DNA of 40,051 nt from an uncultured archaeon (GTDB lineage Archaea; Aenigmatarchaeota; Aenigmatarchaeia; QMZS01). Of this stretch, positions 1,217 to 39,219 are shown one piece after another. The position numbers and the translations under genes were made by a program. Where the stretch lies: contig CAYLRQ010000001.1 in NCBI GenBank assembly GCA_964386335.1, forward strand, positions 13,568 to 53,618. Reading direction: 5' to 3'. The notes beneath the pieces are model-generated. The model saw nothing but the letters and a program-made list of their open reading frames with translations, ran no database searches and was not told where the DNA came from. Every line of letters begins with the position of its first letter. The stretch's first letter is position 1.

Positions 1217-2557
1217 ATGGATCTATTAAATATACTTCCAGGAGTTGCAAATCCAAAAACAAGACTAAATTTTAAGGATAGATTAAAATGGACAGGAATA
1301 GGTCTGTTGTTGTTCTATTTGATGGGTTTTATACATGTTGCCGGAGCCCAGGCTGAAGTTTATGACAGATTCAAGCAGATTTCTGTCTTGATGGGTTCTA
1401 AATTTGGAACTCTTGCAACTTTGGGAATTGGTCCAATAGTTACGGCTTCTATTCTTTTGCAGGTTTTGGTCGGTTCCAAAATAATAAATTGGGATTTGAA
1501 TACAAAAGAAGGAAGATCAAAATTTCAGGGAACACAAAAACTTCTCGCCATTGCTTTCTGTTTTTTGGAAGGTTTCGCTTATGTCCTGTTTGGGGCGGTT
1601 CCCGCCAGTTCACCTTCATTAATACCCATGGTAGGTCTACAAATTGCTCTCGGTGGTTTAATAATTTTATTCCTTGATGAAGTGATAATGAAATGGGGCA
1701 TCGGCTCGGGTGTTTCCCTATTTATTGCCGCCGGGGTTTCAGAGAGAGTATTTATTGGTTTGTTCTCTCCTTTTGAAAAGGCAGGGGCAATTGCACAATT
1801 GATATACGGCTTTTCAACTGCAAATTTTGTTCTCGTTGGAATGGCGGTCACAACAATTGCGGCAACTATTCTAATTTTTGCTATTTGCCTGTATGCTCAG
1901 TCAATTAAAGTAGAAATTCCTCTGGCCTTTTCCCAACTGAGAGGTTTTGGAAGAAGATGGCCTTTGAATTTCTTTTATACTTCAAACATTCCGGTAATTC
2001 TGGCAGCGGCATTAATTATAAATATATCTATGGTTGGAGCAATGCTGGATTCAAAAGGAATAAGCATCCTTGGAAAATTTGATGAATCTGGAACTCCTGC
2101 TCCAGGAGGAATTGTCTATTATCTAACGCCCCCTCACAATGTTCTTCAGAAGTTCCTGTTCGGCTTTGGTCCAGATCCAGTAGATGTTGTTAGAATTTTT
2201 ACTTATTTGGTTTTTTTGACAATTCTCTGTGTCGTGTTTTCTATATTCTGGGTTGAAACTGCAAATATGGGTCCCGAGGCCGTTGCCGATCAAATTTCAA
2301 ATATTGGCATGCAAATCCCGGGATTTAGAAAAGATAAGAGAATTCTTATAAAAATATTGAGTAAATACATATATCCGCTTACTGTATTGGGTGGAATTGC
2401 CGTAGGTATTTTGGCCGCCCTGGCAGATTTTACCGGAGCTTTGGGTACGGGAACCGGAATTTTACTTACGGTGATGATTTTATACAATTTCTATGAGAGA
2501 ATTTCCCAGCAATATATAGAAGATATGAATCCTGCTGTAAGAAAGTTCTTTAAATAA
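1217..2557 (+). CDS. secY: Preprotein translocase subunit SecY
   Basis: 446-aa polytopic membrane protein. 'RLKWTGIGLLLFYLM', 'LGIGPIVTASILLQ' and 'WGIGSGVSLFIAAG' are SecY/Sec61alpha signatures. It follows uL15. Confidence 0.93.
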   Translation: MDLLNILPGVANPKTRLNFKDRLKWTGIGLLLFYLMGFIHVAGAQAEVYDRFKQISVLMGSKFGTLATLGIGPIVTASILLQVLVGSKIINWDLNTKEGRSKFQGTQKLLAIAFCFLEGFAYVLFGAVPASSPSLIPMVGLQIALGGLIILFLDEVIMKWGIGSGVSLFIAAGVSERVFIGLFSPFEKAGAIAQLIYGFSTANFVLVGMAVTTIAATILIFAICLYAQSIKVEIPLAFSQLRGFGRRWPLNFFYTSNIPVILAAALIINISMVGAMLDSKGISILGKFDESGTPAPGGIVYYLTPPHNVLQKFLFGFGPDPVDVVRIFTYLVFLTILCVVFSIFWVETANMGPEAVADQISNIGMQIPGFRKDKRILIKILSKYIYPLTVLGGIAVGILAALADFTGALGTGTGILLTVMILYNFYERISQQYIEDMNPAVRKFFK

Positions 2558-2700
2558 ATAGTGAGAAGAAGGTGCCCGCACTATTTAAATTCTATCATAA
2601 CCTCAATGCTCTCCACAGGCATTCTCTGACTTTTCTCTTATTTCATATCAAGCTATTCTTTACTTCAATTACAAAAGTTACCAATTCAAATTAGAGAATT

Positions 2701-5094
2701 TTATAGATGGCAAATAACTTCAAAATTTCCCTCTCTAAATGAAACTTCTTCAACTCTGTTTGTTCCCTTTATGTCCGGCAGAACCCGTTTTAATTTCTCA
2801 ATATCTTCCTTTTTAGCCGCTATTTCGATTTTGCTGATTTGTTTTCCAAGAGATAATCTGTTCGATATTTTCCACCTGCGAACTTCCGAAATTACTTCTT
2901 TCAGCAACATGCCGGTTTTTAGAGATTCTCTGTCTTCAATTATTTTTTCGGGAAAATTAGATAAATGAATACTCTTGTCTTTCTCCATTTCTTTAAATAA
3001 AATCTGATAAATCTCTTCCGTAATATAAGGAATAAATGGGGCGAATAACTTGAGTATTCCAAGCAAAACATTATACAAAGTCCATTTAGCACTTAGTTTT
3101 GACTTTTCGTCCTCTCCGTAAATTCTATATTTGACTATTTCAAGATAAAAGTCGCAGAACTCGTGTTTGAAAAACATTTCCGTAATTCTTCTCGCCTCGC
3201 TGAGTTCATATTTGCCAAAATATTTGTGATAATCTTCAATAACAAGACCGAATCTCGTCAGGATCCATCTGTCAACAACAGTTAATTCGGGTTTTTTTAG
3301 TTTTTCAATATTTTGATGTATAAATCTCGAAGCATTCCAGAGTTTAATTAAAATATCCATGTTATGTTTTAAATCTTCCTCTCTAAAAGGCAAATCTTCC
3401 CCGATTTTTGCCGTTGTTGCCCAGAGCCTAATGGCGTCAGCACAATATTTTTCAATAATCTTTAAGGGGTCTATTATATTTCCAAGAGATTTTGACATTT
3501 TCTTTCCTTTCCTGTCAAGACCATGACCGGAAATCATTATATCTTTCCAGGGTTGTTTATCTAAATGCAAGTAAGATTTCAATATTGTGTAAAATGCCCA
3601 TGTTCTAATGATGTCGTGTCCTTGAGGTCTAAGAGACATCGGAAATATTTTTTCAAAAAATTCTTCATCTTCTTTCCATTTAGAATTTATCAACGGGGTG
3701 ATTGAAGAAGTAAACCAGGTATCAAATACATCCAATTCCGGAATAAATTCATTACTTCCGCATTTTGGACATTTCTTCGGATTGTCCTTCTCAGGATCTA
3801 CGGGTAATTTTTCATCTTCTGCTAAAACAACCTCTCCACAATTTTTGCAATACCAAACAGGAAACGGAACTCCATAATATCTCTGCCTTGAGATGCACCA
3901 ATCCCATTTTAAATTATTTACCCAATCTTCATAACGCCTTCTGTAAAATTTGGGATACCAGTTCACTTTTCTTCCAATTTCTATAAGTTTTTCTTTATGT
4001 TTCAGAATATTGACGAACCATTGCTTTGTAACTATGAATTCAACAGGAGTTTTACATCTCCAGCAAACGCCAACATTCTGTTTTAATTCCTCTTGTTTAT
4101 ATAAAATACCTTTTTCTTTTAAATCACTTATTATTTTTTCTCTCGCTTCTTCTATCGTCATTCCCTCGTATTGTTTTGCCATTTTATTCATTTTTCCGTC
4201 TTTTGTGATACATATTCTTAAAGGAAGATCGTGTATTTTCCACCATTCAATATCGGTCTTATCTCCAAATGTGCAAATCATCACAACTCCCGTACCAAAA
4301 TCCGGATCAACTTTTTCATCAGCAAAAATTTCAACTTCTTGTCCAAAGATGGGGACAAATGCCTTTCTGCCTATGTAATTTCTATATCTCTTATCTTCGG
4401 GATGAACCACTATTCCCACACAGGCGGGCAGCAATTCGGGTCTCGTTGTTGCTATTTTTATTTTCTCCCCATCCGACAATTCAAAAGTTAAATAATTAAG
4501 ATTTGTTATTCTTTCCTTATCATCAACTTCTGCCTGGGCCAGAGCAGTCTGATGAAAAGGACACCATATAGTTGGTTCTTCTTTTCTGTAAATTTCGCCT
4601 TTTTTATATAAATCAATAAAAGACCTTTGAGCCTGTTTTTGGCAAAAATTATCAATTGTTCTGTACAATAAATCACGGTCCCAGGAAAATCCCAAAGCTT
4701 CAAAAATTTTAGAATATTCAAGTTCTAGTTCTGTGGCAATATTGAAACACATTTTCCTGAATTCGTTTCTTTCAATGGTTGCTTTGGATACTTTTTTTGT
4801 TTCTTCAACATATTTTTCAGTTGGAAGCCCGTTATCATCAAAACAAGTTGGAAAGAAAACTTCATATCCGAGCATCCTTTTATATCTTGCAATATATTCA
4901 AAATGAGTATAACTCATAACGTGGCCAATATGCATCTTTCCGCTCGGCGTTATCGGTGGAACATCTATGGAGAATATATTTTTCCCCGACTTTATATTAA
5001 ACTTATAAATTTTTTCTTTTTTCCAGAACGCTCTCCATTTTTCTTCAATTTTTCCTAAATCCGGTCTCTTTGGCAAAGTTTCCATAATTAGCAT
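2701..5094 (-). CDS. valS: Valyl-tRNA synthetase (class I aaRS)
   Basis: 797 aa. HIGH motif 'SGKMHIGH', KMSKS motif 'KMSKSLGN', a CP1 editing-type insertion and Zn-knuckle 'CWRCKTP...CKNCG...CPKCG'. Size and N-terminal pattern fit archaeal ValRS better than IleRS or LeuRS. An alternative start is at 5085. Confidence 0.8.
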   Translation of the reverse strand: MLIMETLPKRPDLGKIEEKWRAFWKKEKIYKFNIKSGKNIFSIDVPPITPSGKMHIGHVMSYTHFEYIARYKRMLGYEVFFPTCFDDNGLPTEKYVEETKKVSKATIERNEFRKMCFNIATELELEYSKIFEALGFSWDRDLLYRTIDNFCQKQAQRSFIDLYKKGEIYRKEEPTIWCPFHQTALAQAEVDDKERITNLNYLTFELSDGEKIKIATTRPELLPACVGIVVHPEDKRYRNYIGRKAFVPIFGQEVEIFADEKVDPDFGTGVVMICTFGDKTDIEWWKIHDLPLRICITKDGKMNKMAKQYEGMTIEEAREKIISDLKEKGILYKQEELKQNVGVCWRCKTPVEFIVTKQWFVNILKHKEKLIEIGRKVNWYPKFYRRRYEDWVNNLKWDWCISRQRYYGVPFPVWYCKNCGEVVLAEDEKLPVDPEKDNPKKCPKCGSNEFIPELDVFDTWFTSSITPLINSKWKEDEEFFEKIFPMSLRPQGHDIIRTWAFYTILKSYLHLDKQPWKDIMISGHGLDRKGKKMSKSLGNIIDPLKIIEKYCADAIRLWATTAKIGEDLPFREEDLKHNMDILIKLWNASRFIHQNIEKLKKPELTVVDRWILTRFGLVIEDYHKYFGKYELSEARRITEMFFKHEFCDFYLEIVKYRIYGEDEKSKLSAKWTLYNVLLGILKLFAPFIPYITEEIYQILFKEMEKDKSIHLSNFPEKIIEDRESLKTGMLLKEVISEVRRWKISNRLSLGKQISKIEIAAKKEDIEKLKRVLPDIKGTNRVEEVSFREGNFEVICHL

Positions 5095-7643: not shown

Positions 7644-9101
7644 TTATGACTTCCTTTTATAAAATCTAAAGTAATAGATTGCACTGGCCAATATACCAAC
7701 TGCTATTATAACCATAAGAATTGCTAAATAATCTGGTTGTTTTGGTTTTGAAATCGGTTGTCCTTCTTGCGGTTGTTTCTCTTCTGTTGGTTGTGTTATA
7801 TTTTCTTTTGGATGCTTTGCTGGTTGCTCTTCTTGAACTTCCTCTAAATACTCAACATAGAATTCCACAGAAGTCTCATTAACTATAGAAGCATCTTTCT
7901 CTCCATTTATTTCATAAGTTATTGTTAATTCGTCTCCTTCTGAAACTTCTGGATAAACAAAAGCGTATTCCGGGTCTTTTTCAATAATTTCAACTGTTGC
8001 TTTAGGTGCTGTAACCGTAATTAAATCACTGGAATTCGCAAAGGTTTTTGGAACAGAATCATAAATAATAAAATTTTTTGCTTTCTTCTTTCCCTTATAT
8101 TTTACTTTTAATTCTAATTTTGATTTGTTTTGTTCTATTTTGAATTTTCTTGTTGCCTCCAAATTTGAAGTAATACTTGCCGAAAGCCTCAATAAATTTT
8201 CTATTGCCCGCTGAGACATTTTTCCCTTTCTCAAAACTTTCTCCAAAGCTGTCTGCAATTTTGTATTGTTGCGAAGTCCAACACCAGGAACCAAACTTAA
8301 TTTTTTTGTTGCATTTTTTGCTTTTTTTACCGGAGGGATATAAACTCCTCCGCCAATCCCTCCACCAGTTCCTCCGCCACTGCCTCCATCTCCGCCTTGT
8401 TGTTGTTCTTCCTGCTTACTACCTCCAGCGCTTTTAACAACAACAGTTATTAAGTCTGATTTAGAATCGCAATTTGAAGGTGAAGCGGTGAAGGTGACAT
8501 TTTGAGTTCCAACTGCAGATGCCAAAACAGTGCATGTAAGAGAAGCTCTTCCACCGGGAGAAATCGAAGTCACTGGAGAACATCCGCTCGAGATATTCAT
8601 TCCCGTGCCAGAAACAGAAAAACTCACGGATTCAGCACTTGTGCCCCCACTATTTTCTACATTTAAAGTAACGGTATAAGTAGAATCTTTATCTACTGTG
8701 ACAGAAGAAGGAAAAACAGATAATGAAATTGAAGGGGGTAAAACAACATCAAAGCTTGAACTTTCAGCCGTAGATGGTGAACCCGTAGTGCTAATACTAA
8801 CTTTTATCTTCACATTTGTTTGAATTGTTGAAATTCTTGCAGTTGTCCAGGATACGCTTGTTGTTCCATCTGAGAAAGATTTTGAAGTGCCTTCTTCTGT
8901 TGAAAATCCTGTGGGCAAATCAATTAAATTGACAGTGCCCGAATCGGATAAGCCTGAAACTGTGATTGTAAACGGCATGCCTTTCATTACGGTCCCGCTA
9001 TCTGCACCTGATTGGGTAATTAAAACTGTTGCTGCCTTTACTGGTATGATTAGTGCTAAAGAAATCAAAATTAAAACCAAAACTTTATTTTTTACCATCA
9101 T
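7644..9101 (-). CDS. Secreted, C-terminally membrane-anchored surface protein (Ig/CARDB-like repeats, Gly-rich linker)
   Basis: Signal peptide 'VLVLILISLALIIPVKA'. Ser/Thr-rich beta-type modules ('TYTVTLNVENSGGTSAESVSFSVSG' is CARDB-like). Linker 'QQQGGDGGSGGGTGGGIGGG'. C-terminal TM plus basic tail 'LAILMVIIAVGILASAIYYFRFYKRKS'. ATGA start/stop overlap with the upstream giant gene. Confidence 0.72.
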   Translation of the reverse strand: MMVKNKVLVLILISLALIIPVKAATVLITQSGADSGTVMKGMPFTITVSGLSDSGTVNLIDLPTGFSTEEGTSKSFSDGTTSVSWTTARISTIQTNVKIKVSISTTGSPSTAESSSFDVVLPPSISLSVFPSSVTVDKDSTYTVTLNVENSGGTSAESVSFSVSGTGMNISSGCSPVTSISPGGRASLTCTVLASAVGTQNVTFTASPSNCDSKSDLITVVVKSAGGSKQEEQQQGGDGGSGGGTGGGIGGGVYIPPVKKAKNATKKLSLVPGVGLRNNTKLQTALEKVLRKGKMSQRAIENLLRLSASITSNLEATRKFKIEQNKSKLELKVKYKGKKKAKNFIIYDSVPKTFANSSDLITVTAPKATVEIIEKDPEYAFVYPEVSEGDELTITYEINGEKDASIVNETSVEFYVEYLEEVQEEQPAKHPKENITQPTEEKQPQEGQPISKPKQPDYLAILMVIIAVGILASAIYYFRFYKRKS

Positions 9102-12100
9102 TTGCCACCACCTACTACCTTAAACCATTCTTTTTTTACTTCTGTTGCTCCAGTGGAATCTATTCTTATTTTCACCATATAATCACCTTCTGACCAGGTT
9201 CCATTAGGTGCAATTGTAACCAAAGCATATCCATAATTGTCTGTTTTATTTGAAGTAACGGTTGTATAATCTTCCCCTTCTTCCAAGAAGCAACCGCCTG
9301 TGTGAGTAAACTTCATTATTTTTTCTACGGATATGCTGGCATTAATAATCGGGGTATGGTCAAAGTTATATGCTTTCAATATAAAAGTAACATTATCAGA
9401 TATATTAAATCCTTCGTTCATATCTCTGTTTTTTCTAATTAACATAGAAGTGTTGTTGTAAACCACTATATCCCAATTTGGTTTTTCCTTCCAACTCATA
9501 TTTTTATTTTCTTTTCCAAATCTTAAATTACCGTTCCAGATTGCTGTTGGCAAACTGCTTCTCATCTCAACAATTCCAATTTCTTCTCCATAAAAATCAT
9601 AATAACTTGGAGTCTCTGCACTTAGATTAACACCCCACCAATCTTCTGTTATATAAGGGTCATCATCAACTATATTCTGTGTTAACTTCGCATTATTATT
9701 TGTGAAATCATCCAAAGCAAATATATAATAGGTTTTATTCCTGGCTCCGTCTCTATCCAAATCCAAATTAATTTCTGTTTCATTAACTGCTGCAAAGTAG
9801 GTTGTATTTGTATCTTTAGCTATCCAAACTCCGATGCCCGGCCTAACTTTTCCTGAGAGATTTCCTATTGTTATGCCTTCCCACGGACCCGGGCCGATAC
9901 TTGCTAAGTATAAATTTGATGTGAAATTTTCTCCTATTGAAACATTGATTGCATTGCTAAAATCTCCGTCTGTATCAAACCATGCAACTTTTGCACATTC
10001 ATCAATTCCCAGCACAGAACACATGGGATAATTTAAAGTGCTATTTGCCAAAACTATGTTATAATATACTCCACTCAAATTTAAAGCCATCATTCTCCAT
10101 TTTGGATGATTCCAGTCATGTCTCAAAGGTTTTACTTTTGAACTATTAAAGTTCTTCAAGCCAATAACAACTCCGTGACTTGTATTGGAATTGTTTACAG
10201 CAAGAATATAAAACATATAAGAATGATTATTATAATCTAAAATTGTAATCTGATCTCCCTCATTTTTTGCCTGAACATTTGAGAAATTACAATCTCCTTG
10301 TTTTATCCAGACCTTGCTATTATTTCCCGCATTTAAATAAACCCAATAATTAAAGTCCATGCTTAATGTCCAGTTTTCTGATGTATTATTAGCATCGCTG
10401 GGTATTGCAAAATTCGGACAAGATCCTGACCCGTTGCTTGCAGGATTTGCAAACACACCGTCATAAGTTTTTCCCCATTCACTGATATTGCCCATTAAAT
10501 CCAACAACATGCCATAAGTATCTTCCCTATATCTTTGTAAATTTAACTTTTTAAAGTTATTGATATAACCGCCTTCACCAACACAACTATCTGCCAAAAA
10601 TGCTTTTACTTCCACGAAAGGCCATCTCCGTTCTTCCATTATTTCCTTCCCGTCTTTGGTGATTGCCGCCAAACCAAAAGTATATCTTCCTGTCTCCATT
10701 GATTTGTTTAAGATTTGTGACAAATTAACAATTAATTCGCCTGATGCATTTATCCCCACAGGTGTAAAATTTATATCAGACCCCATAAACTCAAACATTC
10801 CATTTGAATTCTCCAATCTGATATGCGTAATTGTAACATTTGCTACTCCCGGACCTCCAGAAGGTTCTTGAATCATCACAGGAACTCTAACCAGATCACC
10901 TAATTTTATTTGTCCCAAGTCGCTCCAATCACCCGGCTTTACAGTATAAACTTTTATTTTCTTGGCATTGGGAGCAATGCTTAGTAAAACCAATTTGCTT
11001 CCTTCCCCAAATGTTCTTTGCGTTACATCGCTATTTACAGAAATAGGTATTGAGAAATTGCTGGTATTTGAGTAAAATAAGGTATCATAAAGCCCCTCTT
11101 TCTGACTATCTGAAATCATAAAGTACACAGTTGAATTTTCTTTGCCATCGCCATTTAAATCAATTCCTTTTTGTTTTTGCTCATTTGGATCAAAATATCC
11201 CAGCCATTCTTCATTTACTGCACCTAGTTTAAATACTCCGCTCTTTGATAAAGAAGTATTAACAAAAGCTCCTGTCTGTGCTAAAACATTTTGGCCATAT
11301 AGGACAACACTGTTGCTATCCAATTTCAAAACCTTCCATTTTCCCCCATAGGAATCATTTATAATCCCGTTAAGTGGAATTCCCTGAATTGAACTAAAGT
11401 TTGGCGTATCGCTCATCCACAGGTGTGTTGTATTATGATATACATAAACAGGTCTTGAAGAATTAAATTTGGGGAAGTGATGAGTAAACCAATCATTATT
11501 ACCCTGCAGATTCTTAATTAAATTTGCAATATAACCAAAATAGAAATTTGAGAAGTTTTTTGAATTATTTGGAGGCGTTATAACAAGTAAACTCGCCCCA
11601 TAATCCTCAAATTTTTTTCCGCAAATTCCTTTTGCATTTTTTATCTTAAAAGAATAAGGAGTAATATTTAAAATTTTCCAGGTTATATTTCCCGCTTCAA
11701 AAGTCTGCCCTATTGTATAATTTCCGAAGACAATGCAATTATTACTACAATTTAGATTATATGCGAAATGCGTTCCATTCACAGCAACACTTATATCAGT
11801 TCCTGTTTCTCCTTGACTGCAGTAGCCCCAATGCCATTCTCCACTTTCTCCCGAGATGCAATAAGCCCCAGCCATAGTGGCATTATGGATTGAACTTGTA
11901 TTAATATTATGTTGCCCATTCATGTCTGAAGTGCAATTAGTTATATTTGTTGATTGATTGAAAGAGCAAACTCCTGACAAATAATTATTATTCAAACAAG
12001 AATCTTCTCTGTTTTCCAATCTTAATTCTCTCTTTGGTGTATCCGTCTGCTGCTCAATCTGTACTTCAGTTATAGTGGGTGGGAAAACCGACACACTCCT

Positions 12101-15100
12101 TGTTTCAAACTCAATATTTTCCATATCTTTATTTCCCTTTATATCTACAATAGTAAGTTCTAGGTTGTATCTTCCTTTTGAAGAAATTATTTTGGATAAA
12201 TTAACTGTAATTGTGCAATTATTTGCTGTACAGGTAACAGTTGTAGAATTTGCCGGTGGTTTTATATGTTCGCCAATTTTTTTATTCTCTATTGCTCTTA
12301 CGCCTGTTTTGGTTTCATTAAGAATTACGGGACTTCCATTAAATGTATAAGCACTGACATTAATTACAACTATATCATCTGGTGCAAATATAACGGGCCA
12401 TTGATCTTTACCCATATAATCCAGCTTTGCCAAGAAAGGAGATACCCTGAACCAATAGGTGCCTATATCAGTGCCTTTGTTTGTCTTAACTTTGACATTT
12501 GCCATAAGATTTCCCGTCTTATTAATTCCGGTTATATTAATTATCCACATTTCTTCTTCTTGCTGAAATCCGCCATAATCTACAGTAACATTTTCCTTGC
12601 TGATTTTATAATTATAATCTGTCCCGTTTTTTAGTACAATAGGAGGCCCTTCTCTAAACAGATTTATGTTTTCTAATGAAGCATTTGTAATAATTAAAGG
12701 CTGTGGCGTACCATTCATTTTTGACTGAGGGTCATAAGCAACCACTCCAAATAAAACATTGCTGTTTACTCCATACGCTCCTCCCATTCCAAAAGATGCC
12801 ATTAAATTACCTTCAACAACATCAATCTGTCTTGCATCAATCCAGAAATTTCTTATCTCAAATCCAGCCCACCCAAAATAAGTATCATTTGTAGAAAGGT
12901 CGGTTAATTTTAAATCTATATGATACCAGCCTGATGGAAGATTGACCGGATTTATTGTCAGAGTTGCGCTTGAATTATAAACAAATCCTTCAATTACCTT
13001 GTAATCTGCGCCTTTCTCCATTTTCTTCATTAGTTGATCATTCCATAATTCATTAACATCTACCTCCAAACCATCACAATCTGTACAAGTTAATTGAGTT
13101 TTTCCTATATCTCTAATATCAAACAAACTTGCTTTATTTATATCGACAACATTTACCCTTATTGAAATATTTTCTCCAGAGCCAAAAATACAAGGCTGCA
13201 TTTGGCACATTGGTTCGCCCCAAATCATATATTTTTTAAGCATGAAATATCCGGTTCCGGTTCCTTCTTCCACGGTGCCGCTCAAATTTGCCTTGAATTT
13301 AAATTTGAACATGAAAAATCCCTCATCATCAGGGGTAATAAATCTTATTGTCCCGTTAACCAAGGTTTCATTTGCAATTGCTCTATAATCCTCTGTAAAA
13401 ACATCCTTATAAGAAGGCCAAACTTTATACATTTCAATAATTTTTGCATCTGTTATTTTACTCGCATCTAATTCCCGCCTTGTCAACAAATCAGTAATTT
13501 TTAATTTAATTTTTATTGTTTCATTTGGAGCATAGAACCAGAAATCGTCTCCTCTGAAATCTACAGGGTTTGCTCTTGCATATAATTTTTGTATTGAAAA
13601 TCTGGATGTGCTTTCTTTCTTACCTAAAGGATGATCAACACTTATCTTAACTTTATAAAATCCTTCTCTCTGCGGAGCATCAAATATAACCATGCATTGC
13701 TTATGCATAATCTCCGGCGGACCTTCATCAGATACATTCAACAAAGTCGGCACTACAGACATATTTACTATCATTAGATTCAAAGAACTTTTATTTAATT
13801 CTTCTCCATTCTCGTCTGAAACACTAAGAACTGTTATTCTATCTGAGCAATTTACTCCATCGCCCTTATAATCCTCTATATCTATAACCCCCACTTCTTC
13901 GGGAGGACCTTCCATCAAACCTTTTGAAGAGTTAATCAGCATTATTGCAATTGAAACCTTGCTATTTGGAGCAAAGGAATCTACCATTGCTTCCGGACCT
14001 CCAGCAGAATCCAAAAATTGTGTATTTATAGCCATTATCTGCAAAGAGACTGACCTAATTTCAAAAGCAGTTAAAAATTCCTGCTTTTTATTGGAGTAAC
14101 TAGCTATAATATCTACTTTATATTTTCCCTCCGGTTTACCTTCTAAATTTAACTCACTTTCATAAGTTCCGTTTCCTCCTGTTAAAGGAACAGAAGTTGT
14201 AGTTCCATCGGGATAACTAATATTGGCGCTGACCGAAGCCCCATCGATAAGTTGCCCGTCTAAAGTTTTCAATCTTGCAACAATTTTTAATTTTGGATTT
14301 GGCGTAAACAGATAAGTTGGCGTCCCTGCAAGATTTGTAATTTCGCCGTATAATTTGAAATTTTCAACTGAAAAGACTTCTGCAGGCGTTCCATTTATCT
14401 CAATAAAATAATTGCCTGTTCCATTGGGAGCTTTAAAACTGGCATTCAAACAACCCTCTTCCGTTGTATTAACTTCTGTCGAATTAATCACATTGCCTTC
14501 GCTATCTACCAAAGTTATATTTACTGTCTGATTTCCTTTTAAATGGTTTGTAGAATTTTCAACAAAACCCACAAAATAAACCTCTTCTCCACCAGAATAC
14601 ATAGAATCGTTTATTGGAGGTGCCAAAATAATTTTATTTCCGGTTGCAAATTCAACTTCTGCAATAACATAATCAACAGTTTCATCAATTTTCTCACCTA
14701 TTTTTCTTGATTTCCAGATTCTTGAGAAGTTCGCACTTTTATCAATATAGACCGAATCATAAATTCCCGGGAATCTGTTATCAACAAGAACAAAGGTAAA
14801 ATTCATTCCATCTTCTGTCAAATTAAAATAAGTTCCATAATGCAAAATTCCCGATAAAGACAGACCTTTCAGTTCAGAAAAGTTATGTCCGTCTTTTGTT
14901 GTTGTATTGGAGATATTAATAATATTATTTGTATTAACAAATTTTACATCGAGCATTCCCGCAAGATGTGCCTTGAAATATAATTTATCACTAACCATTT
15001 TAAAACCTAAAGGAATTGCTTCATTGCCGGCACTTACATTAACTACATAATCACCGGGGATTGTAAGATTTATATAAGCAGGGTCTGTTGTGTGAATAAC

Positions 15101-15343
15101 CATTGCAAAAATATTATTGCTTCCGCCTATCGACATAGCAGAATGATTTGCAATTAAAGTTCCGGAAGAATTATAAAATTTGGCAACTACCAATGTATGA
15201 TTTGTTGAAGTATCAACAACGCCATCTATTATAATATCCTCGCCCAACATATATTCCGTTTTATCTATATTTGTAACTAATGCAAAGGAGGGGATAATTT
15301 GAACTATAAGAGAAAGTACAAACACCAAAAATATCTTTCTCAT
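9098..15343 (-). CDS. Giant secreted surface protein (2081 aa), N-glycosylation-sequon rich
   Basis: Uninterrupted 6.2-kb ORF. N-terminal signal peptide 'IFLVFVLSLIVQIIPSFALV' and no C-terminal TM. Very dense N-x-S/T sequons (about 20 in the first ~330 residues by manual count). Cys-rich patch around 'CLNNNYLSGVCSFNQSTNITNC'. Confidence 0.85.
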   Translation of the reverse strand: MRKIFLVFVLSLIVQIIPSFALVTNIDKTEYMLGEDIIIDGVVDTSTNHTLVVAKFYNSSGTLIANHSAMSIGGSNNIFAMVIHTTDPAYINLTIPGDYVVNVSAGNEAIPLGFKMVSDKLYFKAHLAGMLDVKFVNTNNIINISNTTTKDGHNFSELKGLSLSGILHYGTYFNLTEDGMNFTFVLVDNRFPGIYDSVYIDKSANFSRIWKSRKIGEKIDETVDYVIAEVEFATGNKIILAPPINDSMYSGGEEVYFVGFVENSTNHLKGNQTVNITLVDSEGNVINSTEVNTTEEGCLNASFKAPNGTGNYFIEINGTPAEVFSVENFKLYGEITNLAGTPTYLFTPNPKLKIVARLKTLDGQLIDGASVSANISYPDGTTTSVPLTGGNGTYESELNLEGKPEGKYKVDIIASYSNKKQEFLTAFEIRSVSLQIMAINTQFLDSAGGPEAMVDSFAPNSKVSIAIMLINSSKGLMEGPPEEVGVIDIEDYKGDGVNCSDRITVLSVSDENGEELNKSSLNLMIVNMSVVPTLLNVSDEGPPEIMHKQCMVIFDAPQREGFYKVKISVDHPLGKKESTSRFSIQKLYARANPVDFRGDDFWFYAPNETIKIKLKITDLLTRRELDASKITDAKIIEMYKVWPSYKDVFTEDYRAIANETLVNGTIRFITPDDEGFFMFKFKFKANLSGTVEEGTGTGYFMLKKYMIWGEPMCQMQPCIFGSGENISIRVNVVDINKASLFDIRDIGKTQLTCTDCDGLEVDVNELWNDQLMKKMEKGADYKVIEGFVYNSSATLTINPVNLPSGWYHIDLKLTDLSTNDTYFGWAGFEIRNFWIDARQIDVVEGNLMASFGMGGAYGVNSNVLFGVVAYDPQSKMNGTPQPLIITNASLENINLFREGPPIVLKNGTDYNYKISKENVTVDYGGFQQEEEMWIINITGINKTGNLMANVKVKTNKGTDIGTYWFRVSPFLAKLDYMGKDQWPVIFAPDDIVVINVSAYTFNGSPVILNETKTGVRAIENKKIGEHIKPPANSTTVTCTANNCTITVNLSKIISSKGRYNLELTIVDIKGNKDMENIEFETRSVSVFPPTITEVQIEQQTDTPKRELRLENREDSCLNNNYLSGVCSFNQSTNITNCTSDMNGQHNINTSSIHNATMAGAYCISGESGEWHWGYCSQGETGTDISVAVNGTHFAYNLNCSNNCIVFGNYTIGQTFEAGNITWKILNITPYSFKIKNAKGICGKKFEDYGASLLVITPPNNSKNFSNFYFGYIANLIKNLQGNNDWFTHHFPKFNSSRPVYVYHNTTHLWMSDTPNFSSIQGIPLNGIINDSYGGKWKVLKLDSNSVVLYGQNVLAQTGAFVNTSLSKSGVFKLGAVNEEWLGYFDPNEQKQKGIDLNGDGKENSTVYFMISDSQKEGLYDTLFYSNTSNFSIPISVNSDVTQRTFGEGSKLVLLSIAPNAKKIKVYTVKPGDWSDLGQIKLGDLVRVPVMIQEPSGGPGVANVTITHIRLENSNGMFEFMGSDINFTPVGINASGELIVNLSQILNKSMETGRYTFGLAAITKDGKEIMEERRWPFVEVKAFLADSCVGEGGYINNFKKLNLQRYREDTYGMLLDLMGNISEWGKTYDGVFANPASNGSGSCPNFAIPSDANNTSENWTLSMDFNYWVYLNAGNNSKVWIKQGDCNFSNVQAKNEGDQITILDYNNHSYMFYILAVNNSNTSHGVVIGLKNFNSSKVKPLRHDWNHPKWRMMALNLSGVYYNIVLANSTLNYPMCSVLGIDECAKVAWFDTDGDFSNAINVSIGENFTSNLYLASIGPGPWEGITIGNLSGKVRPGIGVWIAKDTNTTYFAAVNETEINLDLDRDGARNKTYYIFALDDFTNNNAKLTQNIVDDDPYITEDWWGVNLSAETPSYYDFYGEEIGIVEMRSSLPTAIWNGNLRFGKENKNMSWKEKPNWDIVVYNNTSMLIRKNRDMNEGFNISDNVTFILKAYNFDHTPIINASISVEKIMKFTHTGGCFLEEGEDYTTVTSNKTDNYGYALVTIAPNGTWSEGDYMVKIRIDSTGATEVKKEWFKVVGGGK

Positions 15344-16776: not shown

Positions 16777-17635
16777 TGCAAGTATTTTAAAATCTGAAGG
16801 TGTTGAATTGATGAGAATTTCAGAAGCTTTAAATAAATATGGGTGGTTAAAAAAATTTTTATATGGAAAACCAAAAGAAGGCTATTTTATATTTGTTAAG
16901 AAGCAGATAAAATATCCTCTTATTACTTGCGTAACCATTAATTCCAAAAAGATAAAACAGGAAATGCAGAACATAGTGATAATTGATAAAAATTTGAAAA
17001 TTTCCATGCAGGGAACATGCAGTTCGTTAAAGAAAGATTTGGAGGGGGTGCATTACGCAAGAGGCAAGATAATCCTGAAGGAAGGCGCTCATCTTAAATA
17101 CAATCATCTGCACTCATGGAACGATGGAGATGAAGTAAATTCGAATTATGAATTTTATTTAGAGAAAAACTCCAGACTGGATTATAATTACAATACTGTT
17201 TCATCACCAAAAAATTTATCGCTTACAACAAAAGTTGTGTGTTTGAAAAAGTCTGCTGCAAATCTGAAGATAAGCGGTATCTGCAAGAATTCTAAGATGA
17301 AAATAAAAGAGAATTTAATATTGAAAGAAAATAATTCCTCCGGCATACTGAAATTGAGATTTGTTGGAAAAGAGAACAGCGAAATTTTATCGCACTCGTC
17401 AATTACGGCGGAAGCAGAATGCAAAGGTCATTTGGATTGTCAGGGTTTGCTCGTTGATAAAACTTCAAAAATTTCATTAATTCCAGAATTGGCGTGCAAA
17501 GACAACAGATCTCAGATAACACACGAAGCATCAATTGGAAAAATCTCCGAGGAAGAACTGCATTATCTCAGAACAAGGGGTTTGAACGAGCAGGAGGCAA
17601 TAGATTTGATAGTCAATGGTTTTTTGGAAATATAG
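16727..17635 (+). CDS. sufBD: Fe-S cluster assembly scaffold SufB/SufD family protein
   Basis: C-terminus 'ITHEASIGKISEEELHYLRTRGLNEQEAIDLIVNGF' is the SufB/SufD signature. The short 302-aa form occurs in reduced archaea. The start may be the downstream Met at 16811, which avoids a 50-nt overlap with sufC. The last ~21 nt plus the stop lie inside the 30-bp direct repeat. Confidence 0.8.
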   Translation: MIMKNAKNANYIQRDHSASILKSEGVELMRISEALNKYGWLKKFLYGKPKEGYFIFVKKQIKYPLITCVTINSKKIKQEMQNIVIIDKNLKISMQGTCSSLKKDLEGVHYARGKIILKEGAHLKYNHLHSWNDGDEVNSNYEFYLEKNSRLDYNYNTVSSPKNLSLTTKVVCLKKSAANLKISGICKNSKMKIKENLILKENNSSGILKLRFVGKENSEILSHSSITAEAECKGHLDCQGLLVDKTSKISLIPELACKDNRSQITHEASIGKISEEELHYLRTRGLNEQEAIDLIVNGFLEI

Positions 17636-17644
17636 AAAATTAAA
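17615..17644. repeat. Direct repeat, left copy (aatggttttttggaaatatagaaaattaaa)
   Basis: A 30-bp string covering the sufBD C-terminal codons and TAG stop. It is repeated perfectly at 20029-20058. Confidence 0.95.
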
Positions 17645-17790
17645 AAATAAGAATCTTCATTCGGAGGATAGATTTTTGTTTCCATTTTTTATATTTAAGT
17701 TCATAAATAAAGTATGAGCCAAAGATTTATAAAATTTCGCTTTAACTCCTATTTGAGAGATCATACGAATAAAAAGTGTGTGAAATACTC

Positions 17791-17814
17791 GTTAGTTGCA
17801 ATTTTTGGCGGTGC
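17791..17814. repeat. Unit 1, 5' inverted-repeat arm (gttagttgc ... ttggcggtgc)
   Basis: gttagttgc (17791-17799) is the exact reverse complement of gcaactaac (18222-18230). tttttggcggtgc (17802-17814) pairs with gcaccgccgaaaa (18171-18183) with one G-T position. Confidence 0.85.
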
Positions 17815-17838
17815 TTTAAAGCGAAAGGTATTTAATTT

Positions 17839-18165
17839 ATGACTGAAGAAAAACGATTAATTAGCTATTGTGGAATTTGTTGTTCATTATGTCCCGCTTT
17901 CAGAGAAAAAGAGTGTCCCGGATGCCAAAAACTTTTAGAATTATCTGGTAGATGTGAAATTGCTAAATGTGCAAGCTCAAGAAATATTGAGTGCTGCTTT
18001 TTGTGTAAAGATTTCCCTTGTAAGTTGTTTGAAGAAGGTTTTGATTGGAATTTGGATGAAATTCCAGAATTCAAGGAATTCAAACTTGGTATAGTTAAGT
18101 GGAAACCCTATAGCAAAGAATATATCAGATTGTTTAAAATTGGAAAAGAAAAAACAGAAAAATAA
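17839..18165 (+). CDS. DUF3795-like Cys-rich (putative metal-binding) protein
   Basis: 108 aa. 'CGICCSLCPAFREKECPGCQK...CEIAKCASSRNIECCFLCKDFPC' matches the DUF3795 cysteine pattern. It is enclosed by the unit-1 inverted repeats. Confidence 0.6.
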   Translation: MTEEKRLISYCGICCSLCPAFREKECPGCQKLLELSGRCEIAKCASSRNIECCFLCKDFPCKLFEEGFDWNLDEIPEFKEFKLGIVKWKPYSKEYIRLFKIGKEKTEK

Positions 18166-18170
18166 TTTTC

Positions 18171-18230
18171 GCACCGCCGAAAACTCTTCGGCTTACTTCG
18201 TAAGCCTCGCCACTATCGTGGGCAACTAAC
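18171..18230. repeat. Unit 1, 3' inverted-repeat arm with inserted hairpins
   Basis: It starts 5 nt after the stop codon. gcaccgcc pairs back to 17807-17814. Local hairpins are gccgaa/ttcggc (18176-18192) and ggcttac-ttc-gtaagcc (18190-18206). It ends with gcaactaac. Visibly GC-rich. Confidence 0.85.
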
Positions 18231-18231
18231 A

Positions 18232-18301
18232 GCAAATATGCGAGAAATCTGCACTTCGTTTGATTTTCCCAAATCGCCTATCGGCGACTTCGCATATTTG
18301 C
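18232..18301. repeat. 12-bp perfect-stem hairpin at the junction between units 1 and 2
   Basis: gcaaatatgcga (18232-18243) pairs with tcgcatatttgc (18290-18301). An inner hairpin is tcgcc-tatc-ggcga (18274-18287). The hairpin is flanked by AACTAAC on the left and GTTAAGT on the right. Confidence 0.85.
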
Positions 18302-18306
18302 GATAT

Positions 18307-18363
18307 GTTAAGTCCAATTGAGGTCGGCTCGCAAGTATGATATCTCCCAAATGGGCGGGCTTT
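18307..18363. repeat. Unit 2, 5' inverted-repeat arm (three blocks)
   Basis: gttaagtcc (18307-18315), ttgaggtcggc (18318-18328) and gggcgggcttt (18353-18363) are reverse complements of 19577-19585 (9/9), 19507-19517 (11/11) and 19483-19493 (10/11). Confidence 0.88.
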
Positions 18364-18400
18364 CAAAAGATTTTTATATCTTTAATCATTGACTAAAATT

Positions 18401-19483
18401 ATGTTGTATAAAATTAAAGGAAAACAAACAGAAAAAGTAAATCAAACAAAATTTAAACAAGAAGAAAAATTAGAAAAAGATTTGGAAGATTGGATAGAGA
18501 ATAATCCATCTATCTTAGGAGAAAGGTTATTAATAATAGGGAGACAGGTCCAAATACCTGAAGTTTATGATAGAATTGATTTATTAGCTCTAGATACTAA
18601 TGGAAACGTAGTCATAATAGAATTAAAGAAAGGGGGACTTAAAGATCCAGTAGATATCCAATCTTTGAGATATGCTTCCTATGTTTCAAGGTGGGAATAC
18701 GAGGATTTAGAAAAACAAGCGAAGAACTATTTTTCTGAAAAAGGTGAAGAAGAATTTAATTTTAATGACAAATTTGAAGAATTTTGTTCATCTGCTGGGA
18801 TTGATGAAATTCCAGATTTAAATCAGGATCAAAGGATAATTATAGTTGGAAGTAAATTAAAGGAGAAATTAGGTTCTGTTGCATTGTGGTTAAGAGAACA
18901 CAGCATAGACATAAAAATTATTGAAGTTTCCCTTTACAAAGACGGAGATAATTTATTTTTATCCCCTCAAGTGATAATCCCTGTTCCTACAACAGAGAAG
19001 TTCGAGATTGGTAAACACGCTTTAAGGAAGGATAGACCTTGGTTAAGCAATGGTGAAGATTGGCATTTAAATAAAAGATGTGGAAAAATAATGAAAGAAA
19101 AATTAATTCAATTCAATAATCTAATTAATGAGAACTTTGAGACAGTCGAAGGTCCAAATTGGAATCAAAAATTTTATGTTTCTTTTAAAGAAGGAAATCA
19201 TATTTGGATATATGTTAATACTCATAAAACAACTCTTGTTTTTAATTTTTTAATTAAAAAAGGGGACATGAATGTAAATAAAATATCCGAAGATTTAGGA
19301 ATAAAAATATTTGATAGAGGATCTTCATTATCTGAAAAATTACAATTAGAAAGTTCTGTAGAAATTACAAATAAAGGAGAATATGATAGAATTAGAATGA
19401 GAATAAAAAAAGAATTTAATATTTCTTCTGATAAGTTCTTGAATTTTGTTAAAAATTGCTTCAATTCATTTAAACAAGTATAA
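18401..19483 (+). CDS. NucS-C/DUF91-like PD-(D/E)XK nuclease domain protein with uncharacterised C-terminal domain
   Basis: N-terminal 'LEDWIENNPSILGERLLIIGRQVQIPEVYDRIDLLALDTNGNVVIIELKKG...DIQSLRY' matches the NucS C-terminal / restriction-endonuclease-like motif (D...E-x-K, then Q-L-x-Y). The ATG at 18401 is preferred over the TTG at 18389 used by the ORF track. The C-terminal ~170 aa are unassigned, possibly DUF4268-like. Confidence 0.68.
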   Translation: MLYKIKGKQTEKVNQTKFKQEEKLEKDLEDWIENNPSILGERLLIIGRQVQIPEVYDRIDLLALDTNGNVVIIELKKGGLKDPVDIQSLRYASYVSRWEYEDLEKQAKNYFSEKGEEEFNFNDKFEEFCSSAGIDEIPDLNQDQRIIIVGSKLKEKLGSVALWLREHSIDIKIIEVSLYKDGDNLFLSPQVIIPVPTTEKFEIGKHALRKDRPWLSNGEDWHLNKRCGKIMKEKLIQFNNLINENFETVEGPNWNQKFYVSFKEGNHIWIYVNTHKTTLVFNFLIKKGDMNVNKISEDLGIKIFDRGSSLSEKLQLESSVEITNKGEYDRIRMRIKKEFNISSDKFLNFVKNCFNSFKQV

Positions 19484-19585
19484 AAGCCCACCCTTTATTT
19501 TAGCTCGCCGACCTCAACTTCTTCGTCGCTTCGCTCCTCGACCCCGTTGCACTCTCCTCGCCTTCGGCTCGTCGGGGGACTTAAC
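19483..19585. repeat. Unit 2, 3' inverted-repeat arm with ~59-nt GC-rich insertion
   Basis: It begins at the last base of the stop codon. It contains aaagcccaccc, gccgacctcaa, a GC-rich spacer (19518-19576) and ggacttaac. Its tail 'cctcgcc..tcgt.ggg..acttaacagc' resembles the tail of the unit-1 3' arm. Confidence 0.85.
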
Positions 19586-19632
19586 AGCGATTTAACGAAA
19601 TTCAGGCGGCTCGCTTTATATTTATTCGTAAT

Positions 19633-19977
19633 TTAAATAACTTGTACTTCATAGAATCTTTCCCTTTCTTTCATAGGAACCTTTCCTTTTTCCAAATTAT
19701 TTTTATATGTAAGGATCATATTCTCAATTTCCGAGAAAGGTTTCCAAAATTCTTCTCCAAACCTATTTTCAAGTTCAGCAGCAAGGGGTGATAAGTACCT
19801 CACCCTAGGTACACTAAGCACCGATGTTATAGCTTCGTATATTTGAGCTTTAAAAACACCGCCCTCTCTCTCTATAACCTTTTCTTCTAATATCTCTAAA
19901 GGTGATTTTTTACTAGCTATTATTGTTTGGTTAATACCTCCCTTTTCGTCCCAAACATAAATCTCGTATACCCTCAT
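19633..19977 (-). CDS. Hypothetical protein (114 aa) inside the insertion
   Basis: An ATG-initiated ORF in typical intergenic context, with no recognisable motif. It is the only minus-strand ORF within the repeat-bounded segment. Confidence 0.45.
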   Translation of the reverse strand: MRVYEIYVWDEKGGINQTIIASKKSPLEILEEKVIEREGGVFKAQIYEAITSVLSVPRVRYLSPLAAELENRFGEEFWKPFSEIENMILTYKNNLEKGKVPMKERERFYEVQVI

Positions 19978-20028: not shown

Positions 20029-20058
20029 AATGGTTTTTTGGAAATATAGAAAATTAAA
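20029..20058. repeat. Direct repeat, right copy
   Basis: Identical 30/30 to 17615-17644. It lies 31 nt upstream of the CDF transporter start. Confidence 0.95.
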
Positions 20059-38994: not shown

Positions 38995-39019
38995 AATTAA
39001 TCATATTTTAGTCTATAAA

Positions 39020-39190
39020 TCCCGCGAGCCAGATTTTCATCAACCCCGTTCTAATTAATTTTTCTTTCTTAGGGGGGTGTCTGACTTTGAACTGGCAACC
39101 CCTCGGTTTCTGAATTAGAGCACCTGCGTTTGTGTAAAACCAAAGTGTTAAACACTACAGCCGAGTGCTCTGCCATTGAGCTATCGCGGG
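39020..39190 (-). tRNA. tRNA-Tyr (anticodon GUA) with two introns: canonical 37/38 (about 39108-39154) and T-loop (about 39034-39085)
   Basis: Manual fold of the minus strand: acceptor CCCGCGA/UCGCGGG with C1-G72; D-arm GCUC-AAUGGCA-GAGC; anticodon stem CUCGG/CCGAG with loop CUGUAG^A after removing 47 nt; variable GGGUU; T-arm GCCAG-UUCAAAU-CUGGC only after removing ~52 nt; discriminator A. Spliced length is 72 nt and CCA is not encoded. This is the strongest GC island outside the 18.2-19.6 kb region. Confidence 0.82.
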
Positions 39191-39219
39191 ATAATATTAA
39201 TTACTTTTTAAGTTTTTTA

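Follow-up and report, generated by a model that had tools for sequence, protein, structure and literature searches.

Gene content and repeat structure of the locus

The DNA analyzed here, hereafter the window, is a 40,051-nucleotide (nt) stretch of contig CAYLRQ010000001.1 from an uncultured archaeon (assembly GCA_964386335.1). It contains two tandem units, each consisting of an open reading frame (ORF) enclosed by complementary repeat blocks, with a conserved hairpin between them. We consider it likely that the two units are mobile gene cassettes of an integron-like family that occurs across domains, probably moved by a Xer-type recombinase.

ORF1 (17839 to 18165, plus strand), the cargo of cassette 1, encodes a DUF3795 protein of 108 amino acids (aa) (Pfam PF12675, E = 1.4e-6). 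ORF2 (18401 to 19483, plus strand), the cargo of cassette 2, encodes a 360-aa protein that was assigned to the PADLOC defence candidate PDC-S11 (E = 2.4e-46) and showed a weak match to a NucS-type nuclease domain (Pfam NucS_C, 8.7e-5). The start of ORF2 is best read as ATG 18401, with the stop at 19483, because the resulting 360 aa are the length of its homologues; a translation from a TTG start gave no match when it was looked up and was replaced by the one from ATG 18401. A total of 466 homologues of ORF2 were found across Bacteria and Archaea.

Direct reading of positions 17500 to 19900 located all the repeat blocks that had been listed in the first-pass annotation. Cassette 1 starts at G|TTAGTTGCAAT (17791 to 17802, plus strand; R' arm), the first 9 nt of which, GTTAGTTGC (17791 to 17799), are complementary to GCAACTAAC (18222 to 18230) at 9/9 positions. 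Its second block is formed by TTTTTGGCGGTGC (17802 to 17814, plus strand) and GCACCGCCGAAAA (18171 to 18183, plus strand), which are complementary with one T·G. The 5' arm of cassette 2 (18307 to 18363, plus strand) contains GTTAAGTCC (18307 to 18315), TTGAGGTCGGC (18318 to 18328), and GGGCGGGCTTT (18353 to 18363), and these pair with GGACTTAAC (19577 to 19585; 9/9), GCCGACCTCAA (19507 to 19517; 11/11), and AAAGCCCACCC (19483 to 19493; 10/11), respectively, in the 3' arm (19483 to 19585, plus strand), which ends with GGACTTAAC as its R'' arm. The distances from the blocks to the start and stop codons, as described earlier, were confirmed for both units. An extra GC-rich insert was likewise confined to the 3' arm, with a length of 38 nt in unit 1 (18184 to 18221, plus strand, including the hairpin GGCTTAC-TTC-GTAAGCC at 18190 to 18206) and 59 nt in unit 2 (19518 to 19576).

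When the ORFs were swapped for a linker, the spliced arms folded as described, with -46.1 kcal/mol (z = -6.6) for unit 1 and -64.8 kcal/mol (z = -2.8) for unit 2 relative to mononucleotide shuffles. The helices were 9–11 bp long, with loops of 2–5 nt versus 38–59 nt. In each unit, a TATA-like box was read downstream of the 5' arm and before the ATG (TTTAAAG, 17815 to 17821; TTTTTATAT, 18371 to 18379), and the cassettes seem to bring their own promoters.

A conserved hairpin site between the cassettes

The 73 nt between the units (18234 to 18306), which had been taken as a spacer, form a conserved hairpin, the core of the putative recombination site. The complete site (18222 to 18321, plus strand) comprises the R'' arm GCAACTAAC, an A, a stem of GCAAATATGCGA (18232 to 18243) and TCGCATATTTGC (18290 to 18301) with CCCAAATCGCC…GGCGACTTC in its loop, the sequence GATAT, and G|TTAAGTCCAAT. 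It was the only match in the window to the covariance model R1 of these sites (83.4 bits, E = 1.8e-22). A truncated second site, AGCGATTTAACGAAATTC… (19586 to 19615, plus strand), follows cassette 2. By direct comparison it is like the 5' half of the sites of the L052/L065/L142 type (L001 to L188 are labels of the compared DNA stretches or contigs) and it gave no R1 match; no CCCAAAT box, 3' stem, or GTTA comes after it.

Across the family, cassettes start with x|TTAnnnnnAAT and finish with the complementary …TAA|C. The sites have a fixed order: the R'' arm (…TAAC) is followed by A or AG, the first half of an 11–12-bp stem, a stretch that varies, the box CCCAAATYGCC-(TTC)-GGCRACTTC, the other stem half, 4–6 nt, and G|TTAnnnnnAAT. 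An asymmetric internal loop (1–2 nt versus 4–6 nt) adjoins the stem, which is a perfect 12 bp in the window and has one extra base in L005. The consensus of the R' arm, TTA-nnnn-MAAT, extends over 11 nt. AAC and GTT were conserved in most of 26 sites found with R1, and junctions of first cassettes suggest G|TT as the crossover position.

The CCCAAAT motif of the site box was also present in the 5' arm of cassette 2, in ATCTCCCAAATGGGCGGGC (18340 to 18363), and again in a small hairpin beside xerA, GTAATCCCAAAT-TTA-TTTGGGATTAC (L142, 2443 to 2468). It may be a protein-binding element.

Compensatory changes were observed in 11 of the 19 predicted pairs among 15 sites from 15 loci, 12 of them from other genomes or metagenomes. 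In the 26 sites found with R1, 90.3% of cells were paired, compared with 72.5% in shuffles (0/500 reached the observed value); double changes occurred in 18 of 23 pairs, and slid controls gave 30–48%. As the alignment had been fitted to the model, the counts lean towards it.

Hairpins with a TTC triloop closed by C-G were over-represented in the 3' arms and sites (10 observed versus 0.94 expected). On the other strand they read C-GAA-G, of the d(GCGAAGC) type, and mini-hairpins of this type are unusually stable in DNA. An alternative parsing of the loops as UUCG tetraloops was rejected, as the stems left TTC triloops. Because of these TTC caps (GAA on the other strand) and the occurrence of cargo in either orientation, the sites point to folded DNA rather than RNA.

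The arms had also been proposed to be RNA processing stems; in such a reading they would pair in the transcript for processing, stabilization, or circularization of the ORF RNA. The spliced arms do fold strongly as RNA, G·U-compatible mismatches are present on both strands, and covariation by itself cannot separate RNA from DNA. However, the search at Rfam gathering thresholds gave 0 matches, so that no known structured RNA family was recognized at the flanks; an E-value search gave chance snoRNA matches only, and ARAGORN found nothing relevant in the region. Bulge-helix-bulge geometry was absent, and the tips are TTC triloops rather than C(UUCG)G tetraloops, with the DNA-stable C-GAA-G on the opposite strand. 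In addition, the L165 MFS gene runs in the opposite orientation to its arms and sites, and the TATA-like boxes of both units apparently lie downstream of the 5' arm, so that the mRNA of each cassette would lack this arm. We regard an explanation at the RNA level as very unlikely.

A different question was whether the sites are ordinary integron attC sites of the kind described for Nanoarchaeota, clustered without an integrase (CALINs, clusters of attC sites lacking integron-integrases) and moved in trans by an IntI encoded elsewhere, in which case the adjacency to xerA described below would be coincidental or XerA would have been mistaken for IntI. The anatomy of the sites has much of the integron logic, including AAC/GTT core triplets, a cassette 5' end complementary to its own R'', and an imperfect hairpin of ~90–135 nt with a TTC/GAA tip as in attC-aadA7. 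Sequences that fit the R'' (RYYYAAC) and R' (GTTRRRY) core boxes of attC are present in the window (AACTAAC/GTTAGTT and ACTTAAC/GTTAAGT), and the experimentally tested attC-aadA7 has the same TTC tip as the present sites. In contrast, none of the present sites was found at E ≤ 10, even with filters off, by covariance model R2, which was built from 10 experimentally tested attCs (nine archaeal ones and bacterial attC-aadA7) and is a proxy for, not identical to, the attC model of IntegronFinder. Canonical attCs share TAAC-AAnTC-nnTCnAnC-nGAC, whereas here the stem begins 1–2 nt after TAAC and the box is CCCAAAT…ACTTC. The conservation of the arms also reaches 11 nt (…AAT), beyond GTTRRRY.

Stems that pair across the ORF

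Pairing between the two ends of a cassette was examined with a position-restricted own-versus-cross test, in which the 30 nt after the terminal 9-mer were compared with the last 130 nt of the same or another cassette. This test replaced a generic local alignment of 5' against 3' flanks, which was too noisy in AT-rich DNA; a generic repeat search of the region was similarly swamped by AT-rich chance repeats. For the second block, the own mean was 10.25 and the cross mean 6.05 (cross maximum 9) in 12 cassettes (p = 6.6e-6), and an independent set of 17 cassettes gave an own mean of 11.1 and a cross mean of 6.06 (p = 3e-9). Blocks spanning the ORF are thus general in the cassette family.

Individual cassettes were in agreement with the test. 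L065 had blocks of 9, 15, and 16 bp and a 58-nt insert only in the 3' arm, the L142 cassette had blocks of 9 and 15 bp, and the two-gene cassette of L052 had blocks of 9 and 14 bp together with further blocks. In the second block, the 3' half ended with …AA|C-T in every case and the 5' half started with (AA)|TT, which gives this block the appearance of an additional, nested TT…AA pair. Positions that varied between cassettes were yet complementary within each, which argues for selection on pairing and not for protein recognition alone.

The same observation bears on the earlier suggestion that the units are miniature terminal-inverted-repeat elements with cargo, i.e., non-autonomous transposons whose transposase is encoded elsewhere. 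Perfect 9-bp terminal inverted repeats and subterminal blocks do surround each ORF. However, variable terminus positions that are complementary within a cassette are unexpected for a transposase-binding end, and no target-site duplication was found, the flanks being ACTC/AGCA (unit 1) and ATAT/AGCG (unit 2). Units were always parted by the same conserved hairpin site in head-to-tail arrays, their ends appear to act as halves of a site-specific recombination site, and no transposase was associated with them. No other copies of the units were found in the 40-kb window. A transposon origin is hardly credible on this evidence.

Distribution of sites and probable transfer of the ORF2 cassette

The further copies that had been suggested as a covariance-model target were found far beyond the window, in arrays from Archaea, bacteria, and IMG/VR contigs. 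R1 identified 2–3 sites per locus in L032, L037, L065, L075, L140, and L165; it misses the sites of the P0177 lineage described below (GAAC/GTTC arms, loop of ~170 nt), which were found by eye. When one genome per species was scanned with a sequence pattern, the bacteria found to have true sites were Anaerolineales, Aerophobetes, Zixibacteria, Bacteroidota, Spirochaetales, and Dehalococcoidia, and the archaea were Methanosarcinales, two Woesearchaeota, and other archaeal metagenome-assembled genomes (MAGs). The scan was loose and returned mostly noise, with ~13 true sites among the 120 stretches listed, and this list of taxa is a lower bound. With a tighter pattern, all 14 matched IMG/VR contigs (14/14) had true sites, with a maximum of six in 8 kb. 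Searches of PLSDB plasmids and INPHARED phages were negative. All sites within an array shared one orientation.

Cassettes held one or two cargo genes only and no recombinase of their own; the cargo of L180 included two DNA methylases and an RNA ligase. On one IMG/VR contig (L188, 9573 to 10508), four sites were located 140–180 nt apart with no ORF between them, and this stretch represents empty or degenerate cassettes.

Homologues of ORF2 with homologous arms and the same hairpin were present in a Cloacimonadota MAG (L005/L006; 81% aa identity), in GCA_029855995.1 (L030), and in L032/L033. The homologue in L031 had the 3' arm only; homologous 3' arms are thereby known from L005, L030, L031, and L032. 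Most loci of ORF2 homologues were without arms (L007, L010, L015, L016, L018, and L019). Each terminal arm of the window differed from its counterpart in L005/L032 at two positions, and the changes on the two sides were compensatory (TTAAGTCC/GGACTTAA versus TTATGTGC/GCACATAA); the second blocks were wholly different in sequence, with complementarity kept. From these comparisons, the arms of the ORF2 cassette are taken to move together with their cargo and across domains.

Linkage to xerA and dif-like arms

In L142, L052, and L165, a divergently oriented xerA gene adjoined the first cassette, and in L032 a truncated xerA copy was located 45 nt upstream of cassette 1. The XerA beside the arrays is a common, highly conserved Nanoarchaeota type. 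The xerA products scored 238 and 240 bits on the XerA model NF040815 (cutoff 220), compared with 210–212 bits on the integron-integrase model TIGR02249 (cutoff 265). As the latter match fell into two stretches and the spacing from K to HxxR was short in the L032 copy, the IntI-specific insertion is read as absent from XerA.

These results bear again on the possibility that the sites are ordinary attCs served by an IntI encoded in trans. The arrays are mostly of one orientation, archaeal CALINs and cross-domain sharing of cassettes have been published (PMC9668308), and no recombinase was located near the bacterial arrays, all of which would fit integrons. The only adjoining recombinases, however, are XerA equivalogs below the IntI cutoff, with the features just described. 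Together with the failure of R2, this makes the integron explanation rather improbable, and a Xer-type enzyme is preferred.

The arms of the sites are similar to those of dif. The R' arm is close to what we take to be the E. coli XerD arm, TTATGTTAAAT, and the presumed XerC arm, GGTGCGCATAA, has similar counterparts in R'' arms such as GCTGCGCATAA and GGGGCACATAA. When the hairpin is looped out, the arms are 6–8 nt apart, and L031 has a hairpin-less site of the form arm-7 nt-arm (GGGGCACATAA-CAGGTGG-TTATGTGGCTT). The arms of the Pyrococcus abyssi dif site, TTATATCCAAT and TTATATCTAAA (PMC2958812), are also close to the R' consensus, and TTAAGTCCAAT of the window matches at 9/11 positions. The L-box stem was considered as a second Xer arm and dropped, as it could not be read in register.

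Contigs encoding an identical XerA (P0177) differed from each other ~100 nt upstream of the gene. L156 represents an empty allele, …ATTGCGTTGAACAT|AAAGTTATCAATAG…, with a plain site beside xerA, and L157 represents an occupied allele, in which 2.3 kb containing an Mrr-type gene and sites of the family lie between ATTGCGTTGAACAT and ATTGAGTTGAACAT. With L157 included, arrays adjoin xerA in four Nanoarchaeota lineages (L142, L052, L165, and L157). Of the ten P0177 contigs listed, six start 190–590 nt upstream of xerA.

The downstream side of xerA was also variable in this population (L155 to L164). The CobA-like gene after xerA encoded 189 aa or 122 aa and was uncalled in L158, and a 94-aa ORF was present or absent.

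Genomic setting and variation in related contigs

The window has a G+C content of 33% and scattered archaeal genes for ribosomal-protein L44e, eIF-2 beta, aEF-2, and ABCE1, on account of which we take it to be DPANN-like. Both cassettes and a convergent 114-aa ORF without an assigned function (19633 to 19977, minus strand) are situated between sufBD and a cation-efflux gene. The 3' end of sufBD recurs as a 31-nt direct repeat, with one copy on either side of this group of three ORFs; the repeat was identified by blastn of L001 against the window and by direct reading (copy 1, 17615 to 17645; copy 2, 20029 to 20058; identical to each other and both on the plus strand). In L001, which like L154 and L174 is a near-identical contig obtained from a different sample, 860 extra bases (2518 to 3377), encoding ORFs of 161 aa and 66 aa, follow directly after the second copy. 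Neither these two ORFs nor the 114-aa ORF gave a match in the family-model searches. The near-identical contig L154 ends at the first copy of the repeat.

In another near-identical contig, L174, a 278-aa HhH-GPD gene without a detectable 5' arm replaces unit 1. Homology between L174 (966 to 1065) and the window (18222 to 18321) starts at R'', and the hairpin of L174 is chimeric. Its 5' half differs at 9/23 positions, with pairing lost, and its 3' half is identical to that of the window; the point of exchange between the two is therefore placed inside the site.

Two further features of the window were recorded. Another region that varies in the population, the second, is at positions 7644 to 15343. 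Here the window has two large minus-strand genes, one for a CARDB-like protein of 485 aa and one for a 2081-aa protein containing an MG2 domain; L154, syntenic elsewhere, lacks both and has a 68-aa DUF1858 gene in their place. A GC-rich stretch of 174 nt (39019 to 39192, minus strand) reads ATCCCGCGATAGCTCAATGGCAGAGC…GCGGGAT and has the appearance of a tRNA gene with at least one intron; neither ARAGORN nor Rfam made a call at these positions.

Proposed mechanism and its assessment

The proposal in the first-pass annotation that the units are mobile gene cassettes gained support from the arrays with different cargo in many genomes, from the ORF2 unit with homologous arms in a bacterium, and from the gene swap in L174 together with the empty and occupied alleles in related archaea. 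We propose the following mechanism. Two sites would recombine at G|TT and thereby release a circular cassette with one site, and the circle would insert by recombining with a chromosomal dif-like site. In the circle, the cassette ends would meet, so that one long imperfect hairpin could arise, with its base formed by the terminal 9-mers together with blocks two and three and its tip by the conserved hairpin. Such folded single-stranded DNA may be the recognized form, as with integron attC, and within an array the ORF-spanning stems could bring the flanking sites together for excision. The enzyme would most likely be a Xer-type tyrosine recombinase, at least in Nanoarchaeota, where it would presumably be the housekeeping XerA. 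The array in the window would then be a recombinase-less fragment, consisting of cassette 1, one intact site, cassette 2, and a truncated site, within a variable island.

Several points weigh against Xer-mediated cassette movement, in addition to the leaning of the covariation counts mentioned above. The resemblance to dif rests on AT-rich 11-mers, the site adjacent to xerA is a candidate dif only, and we know of no precedent among Xer substrates for a long hairpin within the central region. Apart from L032, adjacency to xerA was limited to contigs of the Nanoarchaeota type; the 3–14 kb around the bacterial and IMG/VR arrays contained no tyrosine recombinase, and an integron integrase may be encoded elsewhere in those genomes. 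The exchange point between the window and L174 appears to lie inside the hairpin and not at G|TTA, which a simple crossover model does not predict. As regards the window itself, the 40 kb contain no tyrosine recombinase or transposase, the left end of the array has no recognizable partner site, and the second site is truncated, with no xerA adjoining. For these reasons the array may be an immobile or dead fragment inside another variable island, the one marked by the 31-nt repeat.

If confirmed, the cassettes would constitute a candidate Xer-based gene-capture system in genome-reduced archaea and a concrete route of gene exchange between Archaea and Bacteria, exemplified by the defence-candidate nuclease with 81% identity to its counterpart in the Cloacimonadota MAG. 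Model R1 would then serve as a searchable signature for accessory-gene arrays that are hidden in metagenomes.

Comparison with known systems

Small gene modules at Xer-type sites are known from plasmids in the form of pdif modules, whose sites are plain 28-bp duplex sites alternating in orientation around the modules. The pdif modules of Acinetobacter (PMC7399989) are similar to the present cassettes in being bounded by Xer-like sites and lacking a recombinase of their own, but the present sites are directly oriented, contain a hairpin, and are found on chromosomes of uncultured Archaea and Bacteria. Assignment of the cassettes to pdif-type modules was rejected, as these require inversely oriented XerC/D sites and all sites of the present arrays have the same orientation.

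Integrative mobile elements that exploit Xer (IMEXs), such as CTXphi, the folded single-stranded attP of which mimics dif, share with the cassettes the lack of an own recombinase, arms resembling dif half-sites, apparent insertion beside the site of the host xer gene, tandem accumulation, and a plausible folded-DNA substrate. Known IMEXs are bacterial phages or genomic islands, whereas the present elements are single-gene cassettes of 0.4–1.6 kb. To our knowledge, no IMEX has a conserved hairpin inside its central region, and neither XerA-linked cassette arrays nor archaeal IMEXs using XerA were found in the literature searched.

The archaeal XerA/dif system (Cortez et al., 2010; PMC2958812) involves the same recombinase family (NF040815 equivalog) and similar 11-nt arms (TTATATCCAAT compared with TTAAGTCCAAT), and L156 has a plain arm-7 nt-arm site beside xerA. 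In contrast, the dif of Thermococcales is a single site that is not beside xerA and has no cargo, and capture of cassettes is undescribed there.

The closest likeness is to integrons, the textbook example of the capture of genes as small cassettes, whose integrase is thought to be Xer-derived; we know of no intermediate between Xer-type recombinases and the integron integrase. Shared features include tandem arrays, cassette boundaries at …AAC and G|TT…, a 5' end complementary to the start of the cassette's own site, and an imperfect hairpin site with a GAA/TTC tip that is kept by structure more than by sequence. Cargo for defence or modification, sharing between Archaea and Bacteria, and many arrays without a nearby recombinase are further common features. 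The differences are that the present sites are unmatched by the proxy attC model R2, have another conserved box, arms conserved over 11 nt, and a spacing of 1–2 nt versus 4–6 nt around the stem; that long stems span the ORF and an insert of 38–60 nt is present in the 3' arm only; that the cassettes seem to have their own promoters; and that any adjoining recombinase is a XerA lacking the IntI-specific domain.

Integrons of Archaea, as well as attC clusters with no recombinase, have been published (Ghaly et al., 2022; PMC9668308), and the supplements of that study contain no sequence with the CCCAAAT box. The earlier statement that no archaeal element of this architecture had been described thus holds in part: archaeal integron cassettes share the logic, and the site class, the ORF-spanning stems, and the linkage to xerA were not found in the literature searched. 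As a broader and more tentative proposal, Nanoarchaeota (DPANN of the Woesearchaeota/Pacearchaeota type) might run an integron-like capture platform from the housekeeping XerA and a dif-like site beside xerA, using hairpin-interrupted dif-like sites of a new class and cassette-spanning stems, with the same cassettes in Bacteria and on virus-like contigs. Such a platform could be a Xer-based counterpart of the integron, or a living relative of its ancestor.

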